A DNA stretch of 64,000 nucleotides from Minisyncoccia bacterium. GTDB taxonomy: Bacteria > Patescibacteriota > Minisyncoccia > Phycocordibacterales > PALSA-1337. Each line of letters opens with the position of its first letter. The first letter of the stretch is position 1. A model generated the notes under the pieces. The model was not told where the DNA came from. It was given only the letters and a program-made list of their open reading frames with translations, and did no database searches. The translations under genes were made by a program, and so were the position numbers. The DNA is taken from NCBI GenBank assembly GCA_044228445.1, contig JBGAUV010000001.1, forward strand, positions 143,827-207,826. The letters run 5' to 3'. This document shows, one piece after another, positions 2,995 through 15,821 of this stretch.

Positions 2995-3039
2995 CAAAAA
3001 GACCGCCAGCACAATGTGCTTTGGCGGTTTTTCTTTTTA
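2995..3039 (+). terminator. Rho-independent terminator (copy 2; one mismatch versus 972..1012)
   Basis: aaagACCGCCAgcacaatgtgctTTGGCGGTttttcttttt immediately 3' of the ABC exporter. Confidence 0.6.
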
Positions 3040-3042
3040 TTT

Positions 3043-3087
3043 TGTGCGCCTAGTTGGAATCGAACCAACGACCCACTCCTTAAAAGG
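3043..3087. repeat. attR-like 45-bp direct repeat, identical to the 3' portion of tRNA-Lys at 14087..14131
   Basis: tgtgcgcctagttggaatcgaaccaacgacccactccttaaaagg matches the tRNA-Lys gene from the acceptor 3' end through the anticodon stem; sequence diverges right after. Confidence 0.85.
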
Positions 3088-3266: not shown

Positions 3267-4199
3267 CTATCCAAATGATAGCTTGTCTATATCTTCTCCC
3301 ATGGATTCAGTTCTCATGGAACGAATGTATTTCATTGTCATTAAAATACTGGTATGACCCAACAGTTTTTGTATCTTGAAGGCGCTTACATTGTTCTCGT
3401 CGAGTTTGCAGGCAAAAGTATGTCGAAACATGTGGAGGTGTAGTTTGACCCCCGACTTTTTTATAAGAGCATTTGTCCAGTGTTTTAAACCTTGACGGCT
3501 CAATCCCTTGTCTCCTTTGTTGGAGGCTATCAAACATTCCGTTCGTAAGCCGAGCGCCTCCCTTGCTTCAAAGTACTCCTGTATGTGTAAGAGTAGAGTG
3601 GGGTGAATTTTGAGCTTCCTAGTAATCTTGGATTTCGAGGTTTCTCCTCTTATCGTCATGACAGCTCTATCCTTGTTAAAATCAGAAACACGTAGAGATA
3701 TAAATTCACCCTTTCTTATTCCCAGAAATAATAAAAGACTCACCATCATAGTATCCCGTCGCCGGATAAATGAGTTACTCGATTTTAGTACGATTGCGCT
3801 ATAAATTTTTTGAATATCAGAATCTTCTATTTTTCGAAAATCATCATACTTTACGCTAGGTGGTCTTATGTCATTTAAAGGATTAACAGATATACAACCT
3901 TTTTTCTCTAGCCAATTAAAAAATACATTCAATTTACTCCACTGCGTTTTAATAGTTGAGTTCTTTACTCCTTTCTTTATTTTATTTTTTCCGACTATTC
4001 TCGTTCGAGTCTGGATTCGTTTGAAAAACTCTATAAGCATTTCGGTGCTTAAAAACTTAAGTGTAGAAATTTCTGGCATTATTTTTAAAAAGAGATTGAA
4101 TACAGCTCTATAACCCCTGAGCGTTTCAGGGCTTAGTCGTGTAGAGTATTGCATTACATCCTCAAACTCATTAAAGAGTTTTCGTAGATCATTCTCCAT
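3267..4199 (-). CDS. Tyrosine-type site-specific recombinase/integrase
   Basis: C-terminal catalytic region ...HLHMFRHTFACKL...LLGHTSILMTMKYIRS (R..H..R..Y); N-terminal SAM-like core-binding domain. Confidence 0.9.
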   Translation of the reverse strand: MENDLRKLFNEFEDVMQYSTRLSPETLRGYRAVFNLFLKIMPEISTLKFLSTEMLIEFFKRIQTRTRIVGKNKIKKGVKNSTIKTQWSKLNVFFNWLEKKGCISVNPLNDIRPPSVKYDDFRKIEDSDIQKIYSAIVLKSSNSFIRRRDTMMVSLLLFLGIRKGEFISLRVSDFNKDRAVMTIRGETSKSKITRKLKIHPTLLLHIQEYFEAREALGLRTECLIASNKGDKGLSRQGLKHWTNALIKKSGVKLHLHMFRHTFACKLDENNVSAFKIQKLLGHTSILMTMKYIRSMRTESMGEDIDKLSFG

Positions 4200-5174: not shown

Positions 5175-6032
5175 TTATCCCTTTTCTTTTGTTGATGGTT
5201 GAGGTTTCTTTGCCAGCCACTGACTCAAGTACCACGCTCCGAAAAGCGAGATAGCAACGCCAGTCCACTGAACAAATGTGAGGTGTTCTCCGAGCATGAA
5301 GTATGCCCCGATGATGACCGCAGGAGTTTCCCCCTGAGCTAAGACACTGGCTTCAGTTATTCGAAGGTTCTCAAAGGCCAGCATGTTTGCTATCCAATAG
5401 AGAAAACCTCCGACGAACGCAAAGCCGAGAAGCAGAACTGTAAGCTTGGGAGTCATGGTGCTGATCAAGGGCGTATTAACGCTTAAGATCAGTCCAAGTG
5501 TTCCCATGCCAATCCCTGCAAAAAACCCTTTCTGCAAAGATGTAGTTTTCGCTTTTGCGAACAACTCGTACAGGACGCCGCTCATTACTGTTCCGAAAAC
5601 ACTCCAGACGAATCCTTCCCATTGGAAGAGTCCACCCTTGCGTGCAATCAGCACTCCGCCGAGCATAAGCACAAGGCCGATGATTGAAGCCTCTGAAATC
5701 TTTCGTCCCAGAAATAAACTGATGGCGAAATTAATAAGAGGTGTCGCGGTAATGATGATGATCGTGGGACCTGCGCCCCAATGCCGGATACCCTGGAAAA
5801 GTCCCAGCGTTGCAAATGGCAGCGTGATTGCGATCAGCCAGGTGTATTTGTCCACCTTGCCGATAACTCCACGGAGTCCAATGAATGCCGCGATGGTAGT
5901 CATGAATCCACGGAATATCATGAGTTGTTCCGGAGTGAACATGTGAAGGACGTTGACGAACGGGAGGGCGAGCCCTGCTGTAAGCCAAATCCCAACTACT
6001 CCGAAAAGACCGATAAAAGTCTTTGGTTTCAA
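5175..6032 (-). CDS. EamA/DMT-family transporter (10 TM, drug/metabolite exporter)
   Basis: Two internally repeated 5-TM halves with glycine-rich helices typical of EamA; GC-rich. Confidence 0.8.
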   Translation of the reverse strand: MKPKTFIGLFGVVGIWLTAGLALPFVNVLHMFTPEQLMIFRGFMTTIAAFIGLRGVIGKVDKYTWLIAITLPFATLGLFQGIRHWGAGPTIIIITATPLINFAISLFLGRKISEASIIGLVLMLGGVLIARKGGLFQWEGFVWSVFGTVMSGVLYELFAKAKTTSLQKGFFAGIGMGTLGLILSVNTPLISTMTPKLTVLLLGFAFVGGFLYWIANMLAFENLRITEASVLAQGETPAVIIGAYFMLGEHLTFVQWTGVAISLFGAWYLSQWLAKKPQPSTKEKG

Positions 6033-6182: not shown

Positions 6183-8054
6183 ATGAAAAAACAGCATTGG
6201 ATCATCCCGCTTCTCTTGGTGGCATTCATCAGGGCGGAATTCACCACAGTCCAGGCCTACTCGGCTTGGGACCAGTCGCAGGTCACGTATGATGCCTCTC
6301 GGGGTGTTTACGTCGATCACTACAAAATCCCTTTGGACAATTTCATTGCAGCAGGTGCGGCCAGTAACCCTGACCAAGCCAAAGAAATCGCTGCAATGTA
6401 TAACGGTCCTCGGGACATTCCGGCGAAGCGAAAGCTCGTCGTGAAGTTTCGGACAGACGTGTTCCGTAAGGAAGAGAACTACGCATGCGCAAGTATGATG
6501 TTTCTCACCAAGCCTGTCTCGAAGCGTCGTCTCGTTCTCGTGAACGTCGAACAGACAATTAACGAGAATATCCCAACTGACGATCGTCAGTATCGGGCCT
6601 GGCCTCATCTCGGACTTCTCTTTGTGGGCACAGCTGCTCAAGAAGAAGGCTGGGAGGTAGTCATGTGGGACGAGCTCGTCAAAGGCTTCGCGCCGATGGA
6701 GCAGCTCGTTCAGCCAGGTGACGTTGTTGGTTTCAGTTGTGTTGTGACAGGAATGGAACGTAGCATTGAGTTGGCTCGGAAAGCAAAGGAACTTGATGCT
6801 CGGTATGTGATCGTGGGAAATGATTCCGCGATCTTCCGAGCAAACCAGATTCTAGCGCTGCCCGACAAGCCGGTTGATGTTGTGTTCACTTCGAATAGCC
6901 TCACGGCCATTCGGAGATTCTTCCGAGAGATTGAAAACGCAAATCTCGAATCGCTGCAAATTCCTGGTGTCCAAGTGACATTGGGGCAAGTGCCGCAATC
7001 GAATGAGCGTGATCGTCTCTTGGTGGATCTTTCCATTCGCAAGCGCGACAAAGCTGAAGGACGGTTTGAAAACGACGACGTGTTCGTTGTTCCGAAGCTC
7101 GATCTCTATCCGCACTGGAATGAGGTCTGGTCCAACTACCGCGCGACGTTCGGACACAAGCACAGTAATCCTGATACGGTGAAGAACGGCATGAGCCTCT
7201 TCGCCCAGGGTTGCACCCGAACTCGTGGAAGTGATGTTTGCAGCTACTGCACCATCTACGGCGTTGCGGACATCCGCATGCCACAGAGGGAATACCTTCG
7301 TCGGACCGCTGAGGCCTACAAAGCTTTCGGCATCGACATGGTGTTCAACGTAACTGACAGCGTCTACGAGATGGGCGGTGTGGCTAAAGCGCTCCAGGAG
7401 CTCGGTATTACCTGGAATGCAATGACCATCTACGGTCGATCGCAGGGAATAACTCAGAACCCAGGTCTTCTCGAACAATGGCAACGAGTCGCAACAGAGC
7501 GACTCCTCGTCAACGTTGGGATGGACTCGGGAGACGACAAACTTCTGCGAGAAGGAGTTGTGAAATCCTCGATCAACAGAAAGAGGACTCGCCTTGAGGA
7601 AAACCAAGAGGCGGTGCGACTCATCCGGCAAGCCGGTGCGCATCTTCACTACTCACTCATCTTCGGAACGCCCGGCGAGACATTGGAGACCTGCGAAAGC
7701 AGTATCCGGTTTCTCGAGTGGACGATTGCGACACTCGGTCACCAGTTGGACATCTGCGAAACAGACATCTACTGGCTTAACTTCGGGTCACCTGCAAGCA
7801 AGGTGTTCCATGACTATTCGGAAGCGCAGCGACTTGCTGCGATGGCCGGAAAGTCGATCTCCAGAGAGGAGTGGTACGAAAACTTCGCTCGTCACCAAGA
7901 GGCACTCGTCGTGCCCGAGGCGACGGAAGAAGCCTGGTACCGCCACTTCACGAAGATCGATCTTGCGACTGCGCAGGCTTATAACCAGCGTTGCGTCGAG
8001 ATCATGGCTCGCCATAACGGCAGCATTCGAGGTCGTGCGTACAAGCCGATCTAA
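6183..8054 (+). CDS. B12-binding-domain radical-SAM-like enzyme with atypical cysteine motif and a signal-peptide-like N-terminus
   Basis: PHLGLLFVGTAAQEEGWEVVMWDE...GFSCVVTGMERSIELARKAKELDARYVIVGNDSA resembles the cobalamin-binding domain of class B rSAMs; cysteine cluster is C-x8-C-x2-C (GCTRTRGSDVCSYC) instead of CxxxCxxC; N-terminus MKKQHWIIPLLLVAFIRAEFTTVQA/YS looks like a Sec signal; ~55% GC. Confidence 0.5.
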   Translation: MKKQHWIIPLLLVAFIRAEFTTVQAYSAWDQSQVTYDASRGVYVDHYKIPLDNFIAAGAASNPDQAKEIAAMYNGPRDIPAKRKLVVKFRTDVFRKEENYACASMMFLTKPVSKRRLVLVNVEQTINENIPTDDRQYRAWPHLGLLFVGTAAQEEGWEVVMWDELVKGFAPMEQLVQPGDVVGFSCVVTGMERSIELARKAKELDARYVIVGNDSAIFRANQILALPDKPVDVVFTSNSLTAIRRFFREIENANLESLQIPGVQVTLGQVPQSNERDRLLVDLSIRKRDKAEGRFENDDVFVVPKLDLYPHWNEVWSNYRATFGHKHSNPDTVKNGMSLFAQGCTRTRGSDVCSYCTIYGVADIRMPQREYLRRTAEAYKAFGIDMVFNVTDSVYEMGGVAKALQELGITWNAMTIYGRSQGITQNPGLLEQWQRVATERLLVNVGMDSGDDKLLREGVVKSSINRKRTRLEENQEAVRLIRQAGAHLHYSLIFGTPGETLETCESSIRFLEWTIATLGHQLDICETDIYWLNFGSPASKVFHDYSEAQRLAAMAGKSISREEWYENFARHQEALVVPEATEEAWYRHFTKIDLATAQAYNQRCVEIMARHNGSIRGRAYKPI

Positions 8055-8639: not shown

Positions 8640-8876
8640 ATGTTTGGAAAAGATTTTGTGTGCCTCAATTGTGGTACTGTGGGGAAGCGTAAGTTGCAGG
8701 TAAGGGGTAATTTAGTATTAGAAATACTGCTTTGGTTCTTCTTTCTTATTCCAGGTATTATTTATTCAATATGGCGCCACGCCTCTACTAAACAGATATG
8801 CAAAGCTTGTGGTAGTCTTAATATGGTTCCAGTCGATTCTCCGAAAGGACAAGAGGTGGTGAAGAAAAATAAATAA
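8640..8876 (+). CDS. Zinc-ribbon membrane protein (two CxxC pairs flanking one TM helix)
   Basis: CLNCG...TM(LVLEILLWFFFLIPGIIYSIW)...CKACGS; stop abuts the thermonuclease start. Confidence 0.4.
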   Translation: MFGKDFVCLNCGTVGKRKLQVRGNLVLEILLWFFFLIPGIIYSIWRHASTKQICKACGSLNMVPVDSPKGQEVVKKNK

Positions 8877-8877
8877 C

Positions 8878-9738
8878 ATGAAAAAACTATTTTTGTTTGG
8901 GGCGAGTAGCGTCTTTGTCCTTTTTCTTACTGTACTTTTCTTTTCCTCGACACCTACGGAACAGGGGATTAAGGCACTGGAGAGTAAGTCTACACTTGTA
9001 AGCGAAGCGACAATTCCTTCCGTTGCACCAATTGCAGAAGGTCCGAAGGTTTATTCTGTGGTAAGTGTAATTGATGGTGATACTTTGAAAATAAGTATGA
9101 ATGGTAAAGAGGAGACTCTTCGTCTGATCGGTATTGATACCCCGGAGACAGTTGATCCACGAAAGACGGTGCAGTGTTTTGGAAAAGAAGCATCAAACAA
9201 AGCAAAGGAGTTGCTGGTCGGTAAGAGGGTTCGCATTGAAGTTGATCCTACACAAGGGGAACGAGATAAGTATGATCGTCTGCTCGTTTACATTCATCGT
9301 GAGGATGGGCTTTTTTACAACAAACATATGATCGAGCAGGGATATGCTCATGAGTATACTTACAACACCCCCTACATATATCAAGCTGAATTCAAAGCTG
9401 CTCAAGCTAGAGCTCGTACGAACCAGAAAGGACTATGGTCTCCAGCAACCTGTAATGGAGATACAACATCTAGCCCGATTGTTTTGACTCCTCCGCCCAC
9501 ACAAAGCCCCGCGGTAGCCCCTACACCTGCACCTACAGTATCACCTGTTCAAGAGCCTGCATCTGCTCCTCAATCAGTGGGGAAGTATTACACTTCTTCT
9601 TACGGCAGTTCCAAATACTACTACCCAGAAGCGTGTGGTGGTTGGAAAAGTCTCTCGCCGAAGTATTTAAAATCCTTTGACTCGCTAGAGGCGTTACTCG
9701 CCACATATTCGCGAACAAAAAGCCCTCAGTGTCAGTAG
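8878..9738 (+). CDS. Secreted/membrane-anchored thermonuclease (staphylococcal nuclease fold) with Pro-rich linker and C-terminal Cys-containing Ada-like metal-binding motif
   Basis: N-terminal TM/signal; SNase motifs VIDGDT and RLIGIDTPE; C-terminus KYYYPEAC...FDSLEALLATYSRTKSPQC. Confidence 0.85.
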   Translation: MKKLFLFGASSVFVLFLTVLFFSSTPTEQGIKALESKSTLVSEATIPSVAPIAEGPKVYSVVSVIDGDTLKISMNGKEETLRLIGIDTPETVDPRKTVQCFGKEASNKAKELLVGKRVRIEVDPTQGERDKYDRLLVYIHREDGLFYNKHMIEQGYAHEYTYNTPYIYQAEFKAAQARARTNQKGLWSPATCNGDTTSSPIVLTPPPTQSPAVAPTPAPTVSPVQEPASAPQSVGKYYTSSYGSSKYYYPEACGGWKSLSPKYLKSFDSLEALLATYSRTKSPQCQ

Positions 9739-9898
9739 GGCAGTATTCAGGATATTTCTGACCCATTAGTTTCTTTGTGAAGTCTTCATTCTGAAATAAC
9801 GCGCTTCGCATCCTGGATTCCCGAGTCTTTTAAAAAGATGACCCTTGAATTCCAGATTTAAGGACCATTCACGCAGGTGTGTGACCCTTTCTGGTTAC

Positions 9899-10417
9899 CT
9901 AGATTGGATCAGGTTCGTGTATTTTTCCCTGAACTCTTTCTCTCGCTTCTTCAAATGATTTGTTGTCAGTGGGAGGAGAGTATCGGACGATATCGTTATA
10001 TCGATCATGTATGTGTCTTGTCGCAGTTTCGAGTTCTTTATCGGTCATTGCTTTCGAAAACGTATCTCTAAGAGACCTTACATCCTGTTTGAGAGTCGTA
10101 AAATTCTTTGCGGCATTCAAGTGATCGTAATATTCCTTGAGTGGATTTAGTACGCTACCAACTGCGGCGACGACCGCAGAGATGACGCCTAGCCAAACGA
10201 CCCATTCAGGTGCATCTTTTATTCCAATATATGTACCAGATACAGCAGCAATAACAGCCGGAATCGTCTGGAATCTTGTGAGTCGTCGTCGTTGTTTATC
10301 CGCGATGACATGATGAGTTTCAGCAGTATAAACGCAATTTTGATATATCACCTCGCATTCTTCTGTGTATGTTTCTTTCATGATAGTGGAATTAATTCTC
10401 CGAATATTTTTCTCCAC
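9899..10417 (-). CDS. 2TM effector with SLATT-like architecture (predicted membrane-disrupting partner of the SMODS cyclase)
   Basis: Soluble N-terminal region, two adjacent TM helices (IPAVIAAVSGTYIGI / WVVWLGVISAVVAAVGSVL) and a conserved C-terminal helix; overlaps the upstream cyclase gene by 40 nt in an operon. Confidence 0.55.
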   Translation of the reverse strand: MEKNIRRINSTIMKETYTEECEVIYQNCVYTAETHHVIADKQRRRLTRFQTIPAVIAAVSGTYIGIKDAPEWVVWLGVISAVVAAVGSVLNPLKEYYDHLNAAKNFTTLKQDVRSLRDTFSKAMTDKELETATRHIHDRYNDIVRYSPPTDNKSFEEARERVQGKIHEPDPI

Positions 10418-11304
10418 GCTAGGTGTTTTCCCGCATCGGTTGAGGCGGTAAGAGCGTCACGACTATGGTATTTCAAATATTCCAATGCTTGTAAAACCTC
10501 TAGTTTTGTTGCAAGGTCTATTCGAATTACCGGAGAATTACTCCCTGGGATTGAGAGGTGATTATCCAGATAAGATTCGATATTGTGGATGAATCCAGCC
10601 ACAATTGCAGGGTACGTCACAAGTATAGCGTTCTTTTTGCAGCCTGCAATGATCTCGGGTACGAGCTTCGTGGCCATTATTTCAATTGGGAATGACTTGA
10701 GAGAAGGGAAGTATTCTCGCCGGATTGCCTTCATCATTTTTATTACTGGAGTAAGAATTCCACCCGTTTGGTTATTTACAGCCGAAATGTATTCGGCGTC
10801 ATGATCGTAGTCAGCCAATTCCCATGTTCCAAGGCTGTTTGGTATCCAGTAACCTCTACCTTTCGGACTATGAATAATTCCGTTTGGAGAATGTCCAATA
10901 TTATCGATGTATGCAGGTACAATTTCTACTTTGACGTTATTTGCATATTCGAAAGTGACGGTGGGGTGATCTTGTTGTGGTGACATGGCACCGTACCGTT
11001 CGCTTTCTCGCACGATTGAATGAACATGATCCATCGCCATTTGAGCGGTAACACCGCCTGGACCCCAACGATCAAATTGACCGAGTACAACCAGGATATC
11101 AATATCGAAAGCGTCGTCTTCTCGTGGCTGTATTCTCGTCTTTCGATAGTTGTGGAGAGAACCAATCAATTTGGTGTCTTTGATGTTTTGACCATTATTT
11201 TCAATAACGCCCCTGACAGCGTTGTGCTGCCGTGATATGGTTTCACTAAACGTGTCGGTCAGTTCAAGATTCGCTTTCAGTTTTAAAAAGGTATCAGTGA
11301 TCAT
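10378..11304 (-). CDS. SMODS/CD-NTase-like nucleotidyltransferase (cyclic oligonucleotide synthase, CBASS-type)
   Basis: Pol-beta NTase signature G-S-x14-D-x-D: LIGSLHNYRKTRIQPREDDAFDIDILVV; ~300 aa single domain; directly followed by the 2TM effector. Confidence 0.7.
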   Translation of the reverse strand: MITDTFLKLKANLELTDTFSETISRQHNAVRGVIENNGQNIKDTKLIGSLHNYRKTRIQPREDDAFDIDILVVLGQFDRWGPGGVTAQMAMDHVHSIVRESERYGAMSPQQDHPTVTFEYANNVKVEIVPAYIDNIGHSPNGIIHSPKGRGYWIPNSLGTWELADYDHDAEYISAVNNQTGGILTPVIKMMKAIRREYFPSLKSFPIEIMATKLVPEIIAGCKKNAILVTYPAIVAGFIHNIESYLDNHLSIPGSNSPVIRIDLATKLEVLQALEYLKYHSRDALTASTDAGKHLAWRKIFGELIPLS

Positions 11305-11305
11305 T

Positions 11306-11578
11306 TTAGAGGTAGTTTTTTAACCAAGTTACAGTATCGGAATCGATACTCTTCGTAGCCCAATCGCATTTTGTGATGTCAATTGCAATAAGCTTGTCAT
11401 TTGTATCTAAATGAAGCTTGGCCGCATCTCGCACTTGTCCGGCGGTGTAGGAGGTTTTTAAAAGCCAGACAGATTCGACGGGTCTTGCATAGCCACTATA
11501 GGTTTTAAGATGCTTCCATAGTTCGGAGTAGTCCTTTCCGGGCTTTCGAAGATCGTATGATATGAGTATTGTGTTCAT
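11306..11578 (-). CDS. Small alpha/beta protein with Cas2/VapD-like sequence pattern; first gene of the SMODS operon
   Basis: ILISYDLRKPGKDYSELWKHLKTYSGYARPVESVWLL follows the YD[IL]..(K/R)..L..yG.R...SV[FW] pattern of Cas2-fold proteins; stop is 2 nt before the cyclase start. Confidence 0.3.
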   Translation of the reverse strand: MNTILISYDLRKPGKDYSELWKHLKTYSGYARPVESVWLLKTSYTAGQVRDAAKLHLDTNDKLIAIDITKCDWATKSIDSDTVTWLKNYL

Positions 11579-11708
11579 GTGTTATGATTTGGTGAATAAA
11601 TAATCAAAGGGTGAGGTTCCCAACTGGGAAGATTACTCTCTGTTGAATATAGTTTATCAAAATGATTAATAATTTGTCAAATCACTTTGAAAAAGGTATG
11701 ATATCTAC

Positions 11709-12050
11709 ATGAAAAATGAATCAAATAAGGCTTCCTCAATAGGAGGGCAAATTAGACAGGCGCGCGAAGAAATGAATATGTCGCAATTGGACTTGGCTAA
11801 GGCGACAGGATTTGAGTCAGCCACTGCCATTTCTCTCATGGAAAGCGATCAGAGAAAAGTGACAATCGATACTTTACAGAAACTCGGGGATGTTCTTCAT
11901 AAAGATATAAAATATTTTCTTGGGGCAGAAGAAAAGCCAACAGTGACTACCGAGTTTGCGTTAAGAGCAGATCCTCATCTAAACAAAGAAGACAAAGAGG
12001 CACTTCTTCATCTTATTGATTTGGCTAAGAAGCGTAAAAATGGAAAATAA
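11709..12050 (+). CDS. XRE-family HTH transcriptional regulator (ImmR-like)
   Basis: IRQAREEMNMSQLDLAKATGFESATAISLMESDQRKVTIDTLQKLGDVL is a Cro/C1-type HTH. Confidence 0.8.
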   Translation: MKNESNKASSIGGQIRQAREEMNMSQLDLAKATGFESATAISLMESDQRKVTIDTLQKLGDVLHKDIKYFLGAEEKPTVTTEFALRADPHLNKEDKEALLHLIDLAKKRKNGK

Positions 12051-12540
12051 CATTGATGACCTCGGTCCTCGTAAAAAATTCGCAAAAGGTCTCGCAGAGA
12101 AGCTTTTAAAAGATGTTGGAATTACGGAAGTTCCTGTTTCGTTGCAGATAGTAATAGAGTATCTTCAAACCCAGTATGACCTCGATGTGCGAAAAGTCTC
12201 GTTGAGTAATGCCGTCTCCGGATTACTAGTAACTTGTAGAGACGTCGATGGAGAATATTCCACGATCATTTTTAATGAAAATCATCCTTGGTGCAGGAAG
12301 AGATTTACGATTGCACATGAAATTGGTCACCTATTGATGGGTCATACTTGTAATAAAAATGATCCCACAGCCACTTATAATGAAAAGGAAGCAAATTGCT
12401 TTGCGGCGGAACTTCTCGTGCCATGTAAGATTTTAAAAAAGACCTTTAAAACTGTCACTAAAATTCCTGACCTATCAAAACTTTTTAGGGTTAGTGCTGA
12501 AACGATGGGATATCGAATAATGGAATGTCGTCTAATTTAA
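12040..12540 (+). CDS. ImmA/IrrE-family metallopeptidase (COG2856; anti-repressor protease)
   Basis: HEIGHLLMGH (HExxH) and downstream EANCFAAELLVP; start chosen at internal ATG (MENNIDD) overlapping the XRE gene by 11 nt. Confidence 0.75.
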   Translation: MENNIDDLGPRKKFAKGLAEKLLKDVGITEVPVSLQIVIEYLQTQYDLDVRKVSLSNAVSGLLVTCRDVDGEYSTIIFNENHPWCRKRFTIAHEIGHLLMGHTCNKNDPTATYNEKEANCFAAELLVPCKILKKTFKTVTKIPDLSKLFRVSAETMGYRIMECRLI

Positions 12541-12542
12541 AG

Positions 12543-13043
12543 TTAATCAGTAGAGATAATCTTAGGCATCAGTCTCGCCCATTTTTTCGTACTGCTCTCT
12601 TTTGATGCTGGAATCATCATTAGCTCAGGCTTTTCAAAACTAGTTGATTCTTCTATAAAAAATAAAGCCGAGTCCCATTTCATAATGGTATTTGCTGCTG
12701 CAATTCGTTCGCTTTGTGTGGTGGAGCGGACCTCACCGAAGCTGGTTATCTGCTTTCCTTTGACTATATCAACCAATTCATCCGTAAGAAGGCGGTGGCG
12801 CTCCCTAAGTGCAGTCAAGCGTGCCTCCCTTGTCTGTCTACCCACTAATTCAATATTTTCTTTTCGAACTTTGGATACGAGACGTGAGACATAGTGCCAA
12901 TCAAGAGTACCACCATTTACATTTCTATATCCCACAAGGTAGAGCTGAACCCGTAGTTTTTGGACCGAGATAAGTGGATGAAGAGCCAACTCATCTCTTA
13001 TTGTACTTTTTATTCCGTCTTCTACTTCTGGTTGTTTTCTCAT
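12543..13043 (-). CDS. Hypothetical protein (island cargo, immediately downstream of the integrase gene, overlapping it by 4 nt)
   Basis: ORF only; no recognisable motif. Confidence 0.3.
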   Translation of the reverse strand: MRKQPEVEDGIKSTIRDELALHPLISVQKLRVQLYLVGYRNVNGGTLDWHYVSRLVSKVRKENIELVGRQTREARLTALRERHRLLTDELVDIVKGKQITSFGEVRSTTQSERIAAANTIMKWDSALFFIEESTSFEKPELMMIPASKESSTKKWARLMPKIISTD

Positions 13044-13969
13044 TTAAGTTCGTGGTTATTCGCGGTTATTAATGGCGTAATGTCGTTGAGAGGGTGCTTT
13101 ACCATCTGCGACCTCAGGTGTTCTGCACTTGCTGCCAAGTAGATCGTTGTAGTCTTTATATCACTATGACCCATCATTTTTGAGAGGGAATAGATGTCAC
13201 AGCCTCCTTCGAGCATTAAGGTGGCGAAGGTGTGTCGTAGCTTATGAACGCTGAACGCTGTCCCTGAAGCCTGCCGCATCTGCGCCACCAGTCTTTTTAA
13301 ACCATTTGCAGTGAATCCTGTATCTCTTCGAAGGGAAGAAAAGAATTCTGGATTTACTTTATTGAGTCTCTTTCTTTCCTCCACGTACTTCTTCAGACTT
13401 TGAGCAAGGGTGTAGCTTATTGGCACGATCCGGTCTTTCGCTCCTTTGCCTTGCCTCACAAAGAGAGTGAGATTGTCCAGATCGATATCTGTATATTTTA
13501 AATTCAAGAGTTCCTGCTTACGGAGACCAGCAAAAATGAAGGTTGCGAATATGGCGTGGTTTCTATAGCGAAGGAATTTATACTCATAGGGGTAGTTATA
13601 GACTATCTCGAGAAGCCTGAGAGTGCTTTGCTGTGAGAGTTTGGGAGGTAACCGTTTCTCCATCTTTGGTTTTTCAATATTCAAGATGGGATTTTTCTCC
13701 ATGTAGCCTTGCTTTACGCACCAGCGAAAGAAAACTAGAAGTGATTTGTGGTAGACGATATAAGTATTTACAGTCCACTTCCGCTCTGTACGGCCGCGAT
13801 AAAATAAAGCTCGTATATTCTCTTCATTCACATCATTTAAATTCGTGATTCCTGAAAACTTACTGAAGCACCTCGTTACATATCTGTATCTCCGTATGGT
13901 GTCTTTGGAATAACCTCGGATTGATAGGGAGTAGTCACAGAATTTCTGCGACAAAATTTCAATATCCAT
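13040..13969 (-). CDS. Tyrosine-type site-specific recombinase/integrase (tRNA-proximal)
   Basis: ...HKLRHTFATLMLEGGCDIYSLSKMMGHSDIKTTTIYL... (R..H..R..Y); 5' end lies 118 bp from the tRNA-Lys 3' end. Confidence 0.9.
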   Translation of the reverse strand: MDIEILSQKFCDYSLSIRGYSKDTIRRYRYVTRCFSKFSGITNLNDVNEENIRALFYRGRTERKWTVNTYIVYHKSLLVFFRWCVKQGYMEKNPILNIEKPKMEKRLPPKLSQQSTLRLLEIVYNYPYEYKFLRYRNHAIFATFIFAGLRKQELLNLKYTDIDLDNLTLFVRQGKGAKDRIVPISYTLAQSLKKYVEERKRLNKVNPEFFSSLRRDTGFTANGLKRLVAQMRQASGTAFSVHKLRHTFATLMLEGGCDIYSLSKMMGHSDIKTTTIYLAASAEHLRSQMVKHPLNDITPLITANNHELK

Positions 13970-14087
13970 GTTTTTTCTCGACGAATACTTATCCCCAGTT
14001 TATTTTGACCCTACGGCCTGTTCACCGCAGGAGGTGGTCGTTCAAAATCTCTCTTTTTCCGAATCAGCCCTAGAAATATAACGAATG

Positions 14088-14160
14088 TGCGCCTAGTTGG
14101 AATCGAACCAACGACCCACTCCTTAAAAGGGAGATGCTCTACCAACTGAGCTATAGGCGC
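14088..14160 (-). tRNA. tRNA-Lys (anticodon UUU)
   Basis: Reverse complement GCGCCTATAGCTCAGTTGGTAGAGCATCTCCCTTTTAAGGAGTGGGTCGTTGGTTCGATTCCAACTAGGCGCA; anticodon loop CUUUUAA; good acceptor/D/T arms. Confidence 0.9.
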
Positions 14161-14336
14161 ATTTAATTTACTTACTAACTTTAAACCATACTACCATAGT
14201 TTGTTCTGGTCCTACCAAAACAGCTATAGGCGCATTTATTTATTTGTAAAAATACAATTTAACTTCTATAACCGTCGCTTGTCTACCAAAACAGCTACAG
14301 GCGCATTGAAACACAACAAAAAAGAATATACCTTTT

Positions 14337-15214: not shown

Positions 15215-15255
15215 TTATATTGACATTGTATATACATTGTATATACTTATATTAT

Positions 15256-15540
15256 ATGTCAATAATTAATGATTCAATAATAAGTATTCGTATTGATAAA
15301 GACACAAAAGCTAAAGCACAGAAAGTTGTAGAGAGTATTGGTCTTGATATATCATCAGCTATAAAGGCTTTTTTAACCAAAGTAATTCAGACCGAATCCA
15401 TACCTTTCAATTTAGAAAATAAAGGAGTATTGAATAATCCTAAATTTATTTTAGATATAAAAAAAGAGAGTTTATATACAAAAAGACATGGAAAGAGGTT
15501 TTCTTCAACAAAAGAAATGTTAAATGATATACTCAAATAA
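15256..15540 (+). CDS. Type II antitoxin, DinJ/RelB family
   Basis: ISIRIDKDTKAKAQKVVESIGLDISSAIKAFLTKVI; abuts the toxin gene. Confidence 0.7.
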   Translation: MSIINDSIISIRIDKDTKAKAQKVVESIGLDISSAIKAFLTKVIQTESIPFNLENKGVLNNPKFILDIKKESLYTKRHGKRFSSTKEMLNDILK

Positions 15541-15821
15541 TGCCGTATGAATTATCTTATACTTCAAAATTTAGAAAATCACTTAAAAAGATAGTTTTAT
15601 CTGGAAAATTTAAAATTGAATTGCTTGAAACTGTTTTAAATATATTAAAAGAGAGAAGTCTTTTACCGGAAAAATACAAGGATCATGAATTAAATGGAAA
15701 ATTAAAAGGTTTGAGAGAGTGCCATATAAAAGGTGATCTGTTATTAATTTATGAAGTAGATAAAGACGAAAGATTAATAATATTACATGAAATAGGCTCA
15801 CACTCTTATTTATTTGGATAG
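15540..15821 (+). CDS. Type II toxin, YafQ/RelE-family mRNA interferase
   Basis: KDHELNGKLKGLRECHIKGDLLLIYEVDKDERLIILHEIGSHSYLF. Confidence 0.75.
   Translation: MPYELSYTSKFRKSLKKIVLSGKFKIELLETVLNILKERSLLPEKYKDHELNGKLKGLRECHIKGDLLLIYEVDKDERLIILHEIGSHSYLFG

Follow-up and report, generated by a model that had tools for sequence, protein, structure and literature searches.

A Cas2-fold gene at the head of a CBASS operon travels with the repressor module rather than the cyclase

A 64,000-nucleotide stretch of DNA from a Minisyncoccia bacterium (GenBank assembly GCA_044228445.1, contig JBGAUV010000001.1, positions 143,827 to 207,826; hereafter the window) contains a small gene (11306..11578, minus strand) that encodes a 90-amino-acid (aa) protein and lies directly before a cyclase gene of CBASS, an antiphage signalling system that is based on cyclic oligonucleotides. 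Is this gene a new component of CBASS? The original prediction, made from the sequence alone, was that its product has a Cas2/VapD-type fold and could serve the CBASS-like operon as a sensor, antitoxin-like regulator or nuclease partner. The predicted fold is borne out by our analysis; the assignment to CBASS is not. The protein belongs to PHROG 1090, a phage protein family of unknown function, and its gene keeps company with repressors.

The operon and the partners of its first gene

The open reading frame (ORF) lies exactly where it had been predicted, from an ATG at 11578 to a TAA stop at 11308-11306, and includes the quoted peptide ILISYDLRKPGKDYSELWKHLKTYSGYARPVESVWLL. It is a genuine gene and not a chance ORF, because a family profile retrieves 4,532 representatives, conservation extends to the N-terminus (MNTILISYD) and the structure can be modelled with confidence. 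The order of the genes is identical in an independent second assembly (L069), on which automatic gene calling had picked up the 90-aa gene. A single nucleotide, and not two as first stated, separates its stop codon from the ATG (11304) of a 308-aa SMODS cyclase gene of the cGAS/DncV-like nucleotidyltransferase (CD-NTase) type (10378..11304, minus strand; Pfam SMODS, 3.5e-14; PADLOC Cyclase, 1.5e-30; NCBIfam CBASS_cyclase_b, 1.2e-22, which is under that model's cut-off). This 1-nt gap makes co-transcription of the two genes plausible, as had been proposed. A scan of 9700-12700 found no terminator-like sites and no promoter-like site at the junction of the two genes, and weak promoter-like matches (9 of 12) occur inside the operon at the frequency expected from shuffled sequence. 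No significant RNA structure was seen in the operon's 5' leader (z = -1.55).

The cyclase stop codon is overlapped by 4 nt by a gene for a 160-aa SLATT_4 effector with two transmembrane (2TM) segments (9899..10381, minus strand; Pfam SLATT_4, 1.8e-9; NCBIfam SLATT_4, 3.2e-20; PADLOC 2TM Effector, 4e-18). The mechanical ORF of this gene reaches a GTG at 10417, and the automatic call on the second assembly is 160 aa. Together, the cyclase and the 2TM SLATT effector are a complete two-gene type I CBASS, with a CD-NTase and a single effector and without E1/E2/JAB, HORMA/TRIP13 or any other known accessory. The 90-aa gene lies outside the defined CBASS accessory sets, as the original prediction had recognised.

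Upstream of the 90-aa gene is a divergent control region of 130 bp (11579..11708) with back-to-back promoter-like sites that match the consensus, one on the minus strand (TTGACA(11680)-18-TAAACT) and one on the plus strand (TTGTCA(11674)-17-TATGAT). The region has two 22-bp TGATT..AATCA inverted-repeat arms (11585-11606 and 11663-11684) and no match in Rfam. The distal arm, which overlaps both -35 hexamers, is a candidate operator for the repressor encoded next to it, a 113-aa CapH-like protein with an Xre-type helix-turn-helix (HTH) (11709..12050, plus strand, divergent; Pfam HTH_3, 5e-12; PADLOC capH, 1e-9). This gene is followed by one for a 166-aa CapP-like metallopeptidase of the M78 (ImmA/IrrE) type (12040..12540, plus strand; Pfam Peptidase_M78, 7e-18; PADLOC capP, 1.5e-23), which has an alternative TTG start at 12016 and was also called on the second assembly. 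An Xre HTH protein and an M78 peptidase encoded on the opposite strand, upstream of a defence operon, have the same layout as the CapH/CapP modules of Lau et al. 2022, in which CapH is a repressor that is cleaved by CapP upon DNA damage (10.1101/2022.04.27.489752). In a 2026 preprint, CapP is described as a peptidase stimulated by single-stranded DNA (ssDNA). By this likeness, CapH and CapP of the window probably control the operon led by the 90-aa gene, with cleavage and DNA binding predicted. The system around the 90-aa gene is thus an ordinary CapH/CapP-regulated type I CBASS. In the published operons the regulator pair also stands divergently upstream of CBASS, and several non-CBASS operons have a small uncharacterised DUF2188/DUF3892 protein between regulator and cargo (10.1101/2022.04.27.489752); the 90-aa protein, in contrast, matches neither of these domains in Pfam. 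Term searches of two papers related to CapH/CapP turned up no mention of Cas2.

The genomic context of homologs was surveyed at 51 non-redundant loci (plus two without DNA) drawn from metagenomes, genomes and viral contigs, from records of phages and plasmids and from look-ups of exact proteins, with neighbours annotated by Pfam, PADLOC and hidden Markov model (HMM) searches (identifiers beginning with L or P are our labels). Co-occurrence of homologs with nucleotidyltransferases, on which the original prediction had staked its CBASS reading, was essentially absent; a CD-NTase is present in this island only (plus the identical copy in the second assembly) and at none of the other ~50 homolog loci. 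Homologs therefore do not recur in CD-NTase operons as a CBASS accessory should. Three loci (L022, L033 and L048) keep CapP, CapH and the 90-aa gene and have other cargo (TIR, MBL-fold gene and methylases across such loci), with identities to the window proteins of 46-52% for the 90-aa protein, 45-52% for CapH and 38-55% for CapP. Conversely, the two closest cyclase relatives examined (L070 and L071) keep the cyclase (61% and 54% identity) and SLATT (56% and 53%), and have no homolog of the 90-aa gene within 4 kb by six-frame HMM search and no CapH or CapP by tblastn. A scan of viral contigs for the cyclase found nothing. Because of the double dissociation of repressor module and cyclase, we conclude that the 90-aa gene travels with the repressor module, not with the cyclase, and is not part of the CBASS system.

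The regulators at homolog loci are diverse. At around 20-25 loci a cleavable or sensor-type repressor of the S24, HTH+M78 or HTH-Panacea kind lies next to the homolog: a LexA/CI-type HTH-S24 protein is adjacent at L016, L017, L024, L026, L034, L035, L041, L043 and P0006, an HTH protein with M78 in the window and at P0001, L022, L033, L039, L044, L048, L051 and L057, and HTH-Panacea at L001, L006 and L012. Where a same-strand gene follows at 0-13 nt it is usually a defence gene, differing from locus to locus, and around 9-10 loci have a defence-related or candidate defence gene directly downstream. This cargo includes ThsB-TIR (P0001), TIR-AGS_C after two small ORFs (L017), an MmeI-type enzyme (L015), Shedu SduA with PDC-S65 (L041), Ymh/HEPN (accompanied by PDC-S65 at L043 but not at L037), type III Res (L045), a pair of methylases (L048) and an MBL-fold protein that matches no defence model (L022). 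Several loci have no downstream partner (no same-strand gene at L001, L008, L012, L016 and L034). To judge from the sources consulted, this repressor-adjacent leader position at diverse defence operons appears to have gone undescribed so far.

Homologs are found in other settings as well. An IS1595-family transposase gene lies directly upstream on the same strand on three unrelated contigs (L004/L005, L018 and L020), one from a phage, one from Aestuariivirga and one from Acidiferrum, and the Cas2-like gene may be a passenger of this insertion sequence (IS) family. At four loci (L038, L045, L046 and L049) a PIN_8 (PF18476) protein of ~345 aa is encoded immediately upstream, with a 4-nt overlap at all but L038, which has a 5-nt gap; at L045 a gene for a type III restriction Res subunit comes after the pair. 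PIN_8 and the Cas2-like gene are a recurrent two-gene unit. Homologs are also present on 4.8-kb ColE-type plasmids and, as an oppositely oriented moron, in a Microbacterium prophage. The homologs of Enterococcus phage phiFL1A (gp05) and Staphylococcus phage SN8 (gp35) are encoded within the immunity region, next to HTH, ImmA and integrase genes. The lysogeny module of SN8, a temperate phage, also has a CapH/CapP-like regulated SLATT-TIR unit (L063, 23619-25667) with an HTH protein and a metalloprotease, a 217-aa unknown protein, DUF4231 (SLATT-related) and TIR, followed by the integrase; the Cas2-like gene is ~600 nt away from it.

The fold and the family of the 90-aa protein

A single-chain AlphaFold2 model of the 90-aa protein, built on a 7-sequence alignment, has a mean predicted local distance difference test (pLDDT) score of 88 and a predicted TM-score (pTM) of 0.80, with elements in the order β1-α1-β2-β3-α2-β4-β5-α3. 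Structure prediction and a Foldseek search, the check that the original prediction had called for, returned Cas2-type matches. The best PDB match was 5vvj_F (Cas2; E 4e-3, query TM-score (TMq) 0.57), the top Cas2 chains have TMq values of 0.5-0.6, and ranks 1-36 are all Cas2 save for GhoS (rank 9) and BPSL1038 (ranks 19 and 30). Of 108 family members, 40 match the Pfam Cas2/VapD model PF09827 at E<=0.01 (2.8e-7 for the best), some homologs bear a precomputed PF09827 match, and the SYD of the family profile aligns with the SYD of a type I-C Cas2 (7mi4_E). The model has the ferredoxin-like order β1-α1-β2-β3-α2-β4 of the superfamily, with a conserved Asp at the C-terminal end of β1. Because of these structural and family-level matches, the SYD alignment and the invariant strand-1 Asp, the 90-aa protein is predicted to have a Cas2-type fold and to be a member of the Cas2/VapD superfamily (PF09827 / IPR019199). 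Searches of PDB sequences with 7- and 108-sequence profiles gave a marginal Cas2 match (E 0.55) and noise (de novo TIM barrels, GH48). There was no match in NCBIfam and no meaningful match for the model in the BFVD viral structure library, and a 22-residue Pfam match to INT_SG_DDX_CT_C (E 0.0034) was dismissed as noise.

The family is large. An exhaustive search with the family profile returned representatives of 4,532 clusters (50% identity) at E<=1e-3 and of 1,503 at E<=1e-10, nearly all of them 85-100 residues long; a word-indexed search had found six relatives only. The window protein matches the PHROG 1090 profile over residues 1-89 (E 1.1e-22), as do all 108 sampled relatives. In public records, homologs are named "hypothetical", "SinR family protein" or "CRISPR-associated Cas2".

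Residue conservation was computed over 249 members with ~30-70% identity. Y8 (99%), D9 (100%, 248/249), L10 (100%), Y17 (100%), S36 (99%), W38 (96%), R50 (86%), D58 (96%), N60 (84%) and D61 (100%) stand out, and W85 is conserved. The Y-D-[IL]...S-V-W residues highlighted by the original prediction are present and coincide with the most conserved columns (Y8, D9, L10, S36 and W38). In the model, D9 ends strand 1, S36 lies in the β2-β3 turn and D58-D61 lie in the α2-β4 loop before strand 4. Cas2 and BPSL1038 have their Asp pair and SST motif at one edge of the sheet (PMC10491678), and by the ferredoxin-type topology D9, S36 and D58/N60/D61 would lie at that edge too. Together with Y8, Y17 and R50, which the topology puts there as well, they resemble an active site. 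The invariant D9, S36, D58 and D61 suggest a dimeric Cas2-like enzyme. Domain fusions in tandem, two- or threefold, are found in P0007, P0052, P0034 and P0153. P0034 (1507 aa) combines tandem Cas2-like copies with Baseplate_J and CBM_5_12 domains, and P0153 (324 aa) has three degenerate Cas2-like copies fused to a ComEA-type helix-hairpin-helix DNA-binding domain. These tandem and helix-hairpin-helix fusions hint at an oligomeric, nucleic-acid-directed protein. A relationship to ChrB_N was seen for one tandem-duplicated member only.

By layout (α3, and an Asp together with a Ser between β2 and β3), the 90-aa protein is closest to the non-CRISPR nuclease BPSL1038 of Burkholderia pseudomallei (7VXR; PMC10491678). 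Both are non-CRISPR, stand-alone Cas2 folds with an appended C-terminal α3, and the proposed BPSL1038 site D11(X20)SST (PMC10491678) can be set against D9(X26)S36 in the 90-aa protein. However, the family profile does not retrieve 7VXR and there is no detectable sequence relationship, the superposition is poor (root mean square deviation ~10 Å, with a domain-swapped dimer), and no connection of BPSL1038 with repressors or defence operons has been described.

The integrative island at tRNA-Lys

The operon is carried by an integrative island of ~11 kb at a tRNA-Lys gene (14087-14160, minus strand; found by ARAGORN and with 73.8 bits by the Rfam tRNA model). This conclusion rests on 45-nt repeats, an integrase adjoining the tRNA and a contrast in GC content. 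The 45-nt 3' end of tRNA-Lys (14086-14130) forms an attachment (att) direct repeat (D1) with a perfect distal copy at 3043..3087 (100% identity), at a spacing of 11,043 nt. The tyrosine integrase of the island (13040..13969, minus strand; Pfam Phage_integrase, 6.7e-30) adjoins tRNA-Lys. GC content within the repeats is mostly 0.40-0.55 (0.37 in the first kb) vs 0.27-0.32 in the flank at 15-24 kb. The stop codon of the integrase is overlapped by 4 nt by a gene for a 166-aa protein (12543..13043, minus strand) with no significant match in Pfam, PADLOC or NCBIfam; it is kept on the second assembly and is a candidate excisionase or regulator of the island.

Besides this integrase and the CapH/CapP-CBASS unit, the island contains an SNase-like gene and a radical SAM gene. 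Just within the distal att repeat there is a second tyrosine integrase (3267-4199, minus strand; Phage_integrase, 1.5e-24). The island may consist of two elements in tandem or be composite; no att copy was found in its interior. The segment with the highest GC content (0.49-0.55) contains genes for a 623-aa B12-binding radical SAM protein (6183-8054, plus strand) and an EamA-type transporter (5175-6032, minus strand), cargo unrelated to defence. A full-length LOOT RNA motif (Rfam RF03000; 8461-8578, plus strand; 76 bits vs a gathering score of 46.4, E 3e-13) lies between the radical SAM gene and an ORF for a 78-aa zinc-ribbon/Pmp3-like membrane protein. The latter is followed after 1 nt by a gene whose 286-aa product has a hydrophobic segment at the N-terminus and a staphylococcal nuclease (SNase) domain (4.8e-24). 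This gene pair (8640-9738, plus strand) is convergent with the SLATT gene.

Several features lie at or beyond the island ends. Two 98%-identical copies of a 43-nt GC-rich, terminator-like hairpin with a T-run (971-1013 and 2997-3039; AAAAGACCGCCAGCAC.ATGTGCTTTGGCGGTTTTTCTTTTTA) bracket an ABC-ATPase gene (1118-2983), and the second copy stops 4 nt short of the att repeat. Next to the intact tRNA-Lys, at 14139-14300, there are three copies, 71-73 nt apart, of an 18-30-nt tRNA-Lys-like segment (CTACCAA..AGCTATAGGCGCATTT), where ARAGORN and Rfam call one tRNA only; these copies may be tRNA fragments from earlier integrations. Just outside the island (15220-15821, plus strand) are two small ORFs of 106 and 93 aa with a 1-nt stop/start overlap. 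The 93-aa product (…HELNGKLKGLRECHI…) is presumably RelE/YafQ-like, which suggests a type II toxin-antitoxin pair.

Possible roles of the PHROG 1090 family

We are confident of the identity and genomic context given above for the 90-aa gene. The best explanation overall, to which we assign a probability of about 0.55, is that the PHROG 1090 clade is an autonomous small module of mobile elements under damage- or phage-responsive cleavable repressors. The repressors over the module would be of the LexA/CI-type HTH-S24, the ImmR/ImmA or CapH/CapP-type HTH with M78, and the HTH-Panacea kinds. An autonomous activity is suggested because homologs stand alone in phages, plasmids and IS elements, and an activity that is kept off until stress, or that feeds back on the switch, is suggested because homologs stay with damage-sensing repressors. 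A nuclease effector or amplifier mechanism for this module is tentative, and we lean against it rather than for it. Under such a mechanism, DNA damage or infection would lead CapP to cleave CapH, so that the promoter-proximal 90-aa protein would be made first; it would form a Cas2-like dimer whose D9/S36/D58/N60/D61 pocket would cut or process nucleic acid. Of the roles that it might then play, we think two the most likely, that of a small stand-alone exclusion effector and that of an amplifier that adds to the damage signal (ssDNA) and thereby keeps the repressor switch ON; the cyclase would be required for neither.

Several points weigh against this explanation or parts of it. The Foldseek scores are modest (E 4e-3 at best, TM ~0.55-0.6), and the PF09827 score of the window protein, 15.2 bits (E 0.024), falls short of the gathering threshold of 23.8. 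The dimer and the clustering of invariant residues are deductions from the predicted topology. The family median isoelectric point (pI) of 5.85 is unlike that of a general nucleic-acid binder. Strong toxicity of the family is unlikely because many homologs stand alone without an obvious antitoxin. Where an S24 gene is followed by the homolog in the same direction, the two would be co-expressed, which fits the amplifier model poorly. The locus scans used the N-terminal pattern of the 7-sequence alignment, so the context sample is biased towards close relatives, and literature searches found no functional, biochemical or genetic study of the family.

Other explanations attach the protein more closely to its neighbours. 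As a CBASS-specific accessory it would work with the CD-NTase by sensing phage, by regulating activity or as a partner nuclease, and CBASS would gain a new subtype. With 1 nt between the gene and the cyclase, coupled expression is likely, the order is kept on the second assembly of the same island, and three loci have modules of the nucleotide-signalling type (SMODS here, ThsB-TIR at P0001 and TIR-AGS_C at L017). However, the cyclase is found at one of the ~51 non-redundant loci, its relatives at L070 and L071 are without the 90-aa gene and the pair that they keep is already a complete type I CBASS, and the gene stands equally tightly before genes that work without a nucleotide signal (Shedu, HEPN/Ymh, MmeI and type III restriction). 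The co-occurrence test thus largely refutes this explanation, which we consider highly improbable. A ring-nuclease or signal-degrading role was set aside, as the gene also heads operons without a nucleotide signal. The protein could instead be a non-enzymatic partner of Xre-type repressors, an anti- or co-repressor that binds CapH, LexA-like or Panacea-HTH proteins and shapes the switch by feedback, and would as such be the third part of the portable regulatory cassette. It co-travels with CapP and CapH at similar divergence, adjoins three unrelated sensor-domain types that all have an Xre or LexA HTH, and occupies the 'Cro position' in divergent arrangements and lies inside phage immunity regions. 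Against this, the invariant Asp, Ser, Asp, Asn and Tyr residues resemble a catalytic or metal site and not a protein-protein interface, homologs after IS1595 or PIN_8, on small plasmids and as a prophage moron have no nearby regulator, and published CapH/CapP systems function as two-protein modules (10.1101/2022.04.27.489752). We regard a repressor partner as unlikely. A related proposal, which we think distinctly unlikely, makes the Cas2-like protein a hitherto unrecognised third component of the portable cassettes (LexA/S24, CapH/CapP and HTH-Panacea) that sense stress and switch on immune operons; as a small nuclease made first upon de-repression, it would add to the ssDNA or damage signal, or inactivate the repressor.

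The remaining explanations are taken from relatives with a similar fold. The structural matches include GhoS (2llz, E 3e-2, TMq 0.48), whose gene shares an operon with, and lies before, the membrane toxin gene ghoT. By analogy, the 90-aa protein would be an RNase like this type V antitoxin, cleaving its own operon mRNA and buffering leaky expression of a toxic effector; it shares with GhoS a Cas2-like fold and a leader gene in an operon with a membrane-damaging protein, here the 2TM effector. Unlike GhoS, which to our knowledge lacks the strand-1 Asp, the PHROG 1090 family retains it, and its downstream genes are highly variable or absent. They are too diverse for a sequence-specific mRNA target, many homologs (L001 and the others named above) have no same-strand gene downstream, and the 5' leader is, as noted, without significant structure, which makes this role very improbable. 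A VapD-like toxin, with the adjacent HTH protein as its antitoxin and a place beside CBASS only through a shared defence island, is an explanation that we consider quite improbable. VapD proteins (VapXD, VapYD and VapWD) belong to the same superfamily, are small, mobile and sometimes stand-alone, and have a catalytic Asp near the N-terminus (PMC11980593). They are toxic, and VapD-like relatives induce SOS when overproduced, which would fit a link to SOS-type repressors (PMC11980593). The modules with S24 followed by the homolog have 3-5 nt gaps and resemble toxin-antitoxin operons (L016, L017 and L035). However, no VapD structure is among the top 50 fold matches listed, and the 90-aa model is without the extra helices α1' and α2' of VapD. 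VapD antitoxins are the SH3-like VapX or VapY, or VapW, an inactivated VapD paralogue (PMC11980593). No VapX-, VapY- or VapW-like partner was seen at homolog loci, no second PHROG 1090 paralogue was found at any of them, and partnerless stand-alone copies are common. HTH-Panacea loci have a separate 113-aa gene in the toxin position, and the 0-6 nt gaps or overlaps to varied downstream defence genes indicate true operon membership. By its partner genes the 90-aa protein is not a VapD toxin of a toxin-antitoxin system. A remnant Cas2 from a decayed CRISPR-Cas adaptation module has next to no chance of being correct. Some records do name homologs 'CRISPR-associated endonuclease Cas2', and the protein shares with Cas2 a ferredoxin-like β-α-β-β-α-β core of ~90 residues and a 'hYD' motif in which an invariant Asp ends strand 1. 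It differs from Cas2 in its extra β5 and C-terminal α3, in its own invariant S36, D58, N60 and D61 and in the acidic pI of its family, and also in its neighbours, which are CapH and the CD-NTase here and repressors, transposases and defence genes elsewhere. It is not a CRISPR Cas2, as both cas1 and an array are missing; the 64-kb window has no CRISPR-like array, no conserved Cas1-sized partner is present at the 51 loci, and the homologs form a large clade of their own with its own invariant residues.

On our explanation, a Cas2-fold gene before a cyclase is not a new CBASS subtype, and a tempting mis-annotation is corrected. The labels "CRISPR-associated Cas2" and "SinR family protein" used in some databases are likewise unsuited to the 90-aa gene. 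The CBASS-specific novelty falls away, and the PHROG 1090 family is a new, very large and uncharacterised family within a known superfamily. If our explanation holds, it would be a very large non-CRISPR branch of Cas2/VapD, with thousands of clusters, enzyme-like invariant residues and a consistent genomic address, and it would bear on what Cas2-type proteins did before their recruitment by CRISPR. The transcriptional control of abortive infection is an active question (CapW, CapH/CapP and CapK/CapS), and a common extra gene in the cassette would offer a direct and testable lead. Were the protein indeed a third component of such cassettes, it would turn a graded damage signal into an all-or-none commitment to suicidal defence such as CBASS, Thoeris-like TIR, Shedu or restriction enzymes.

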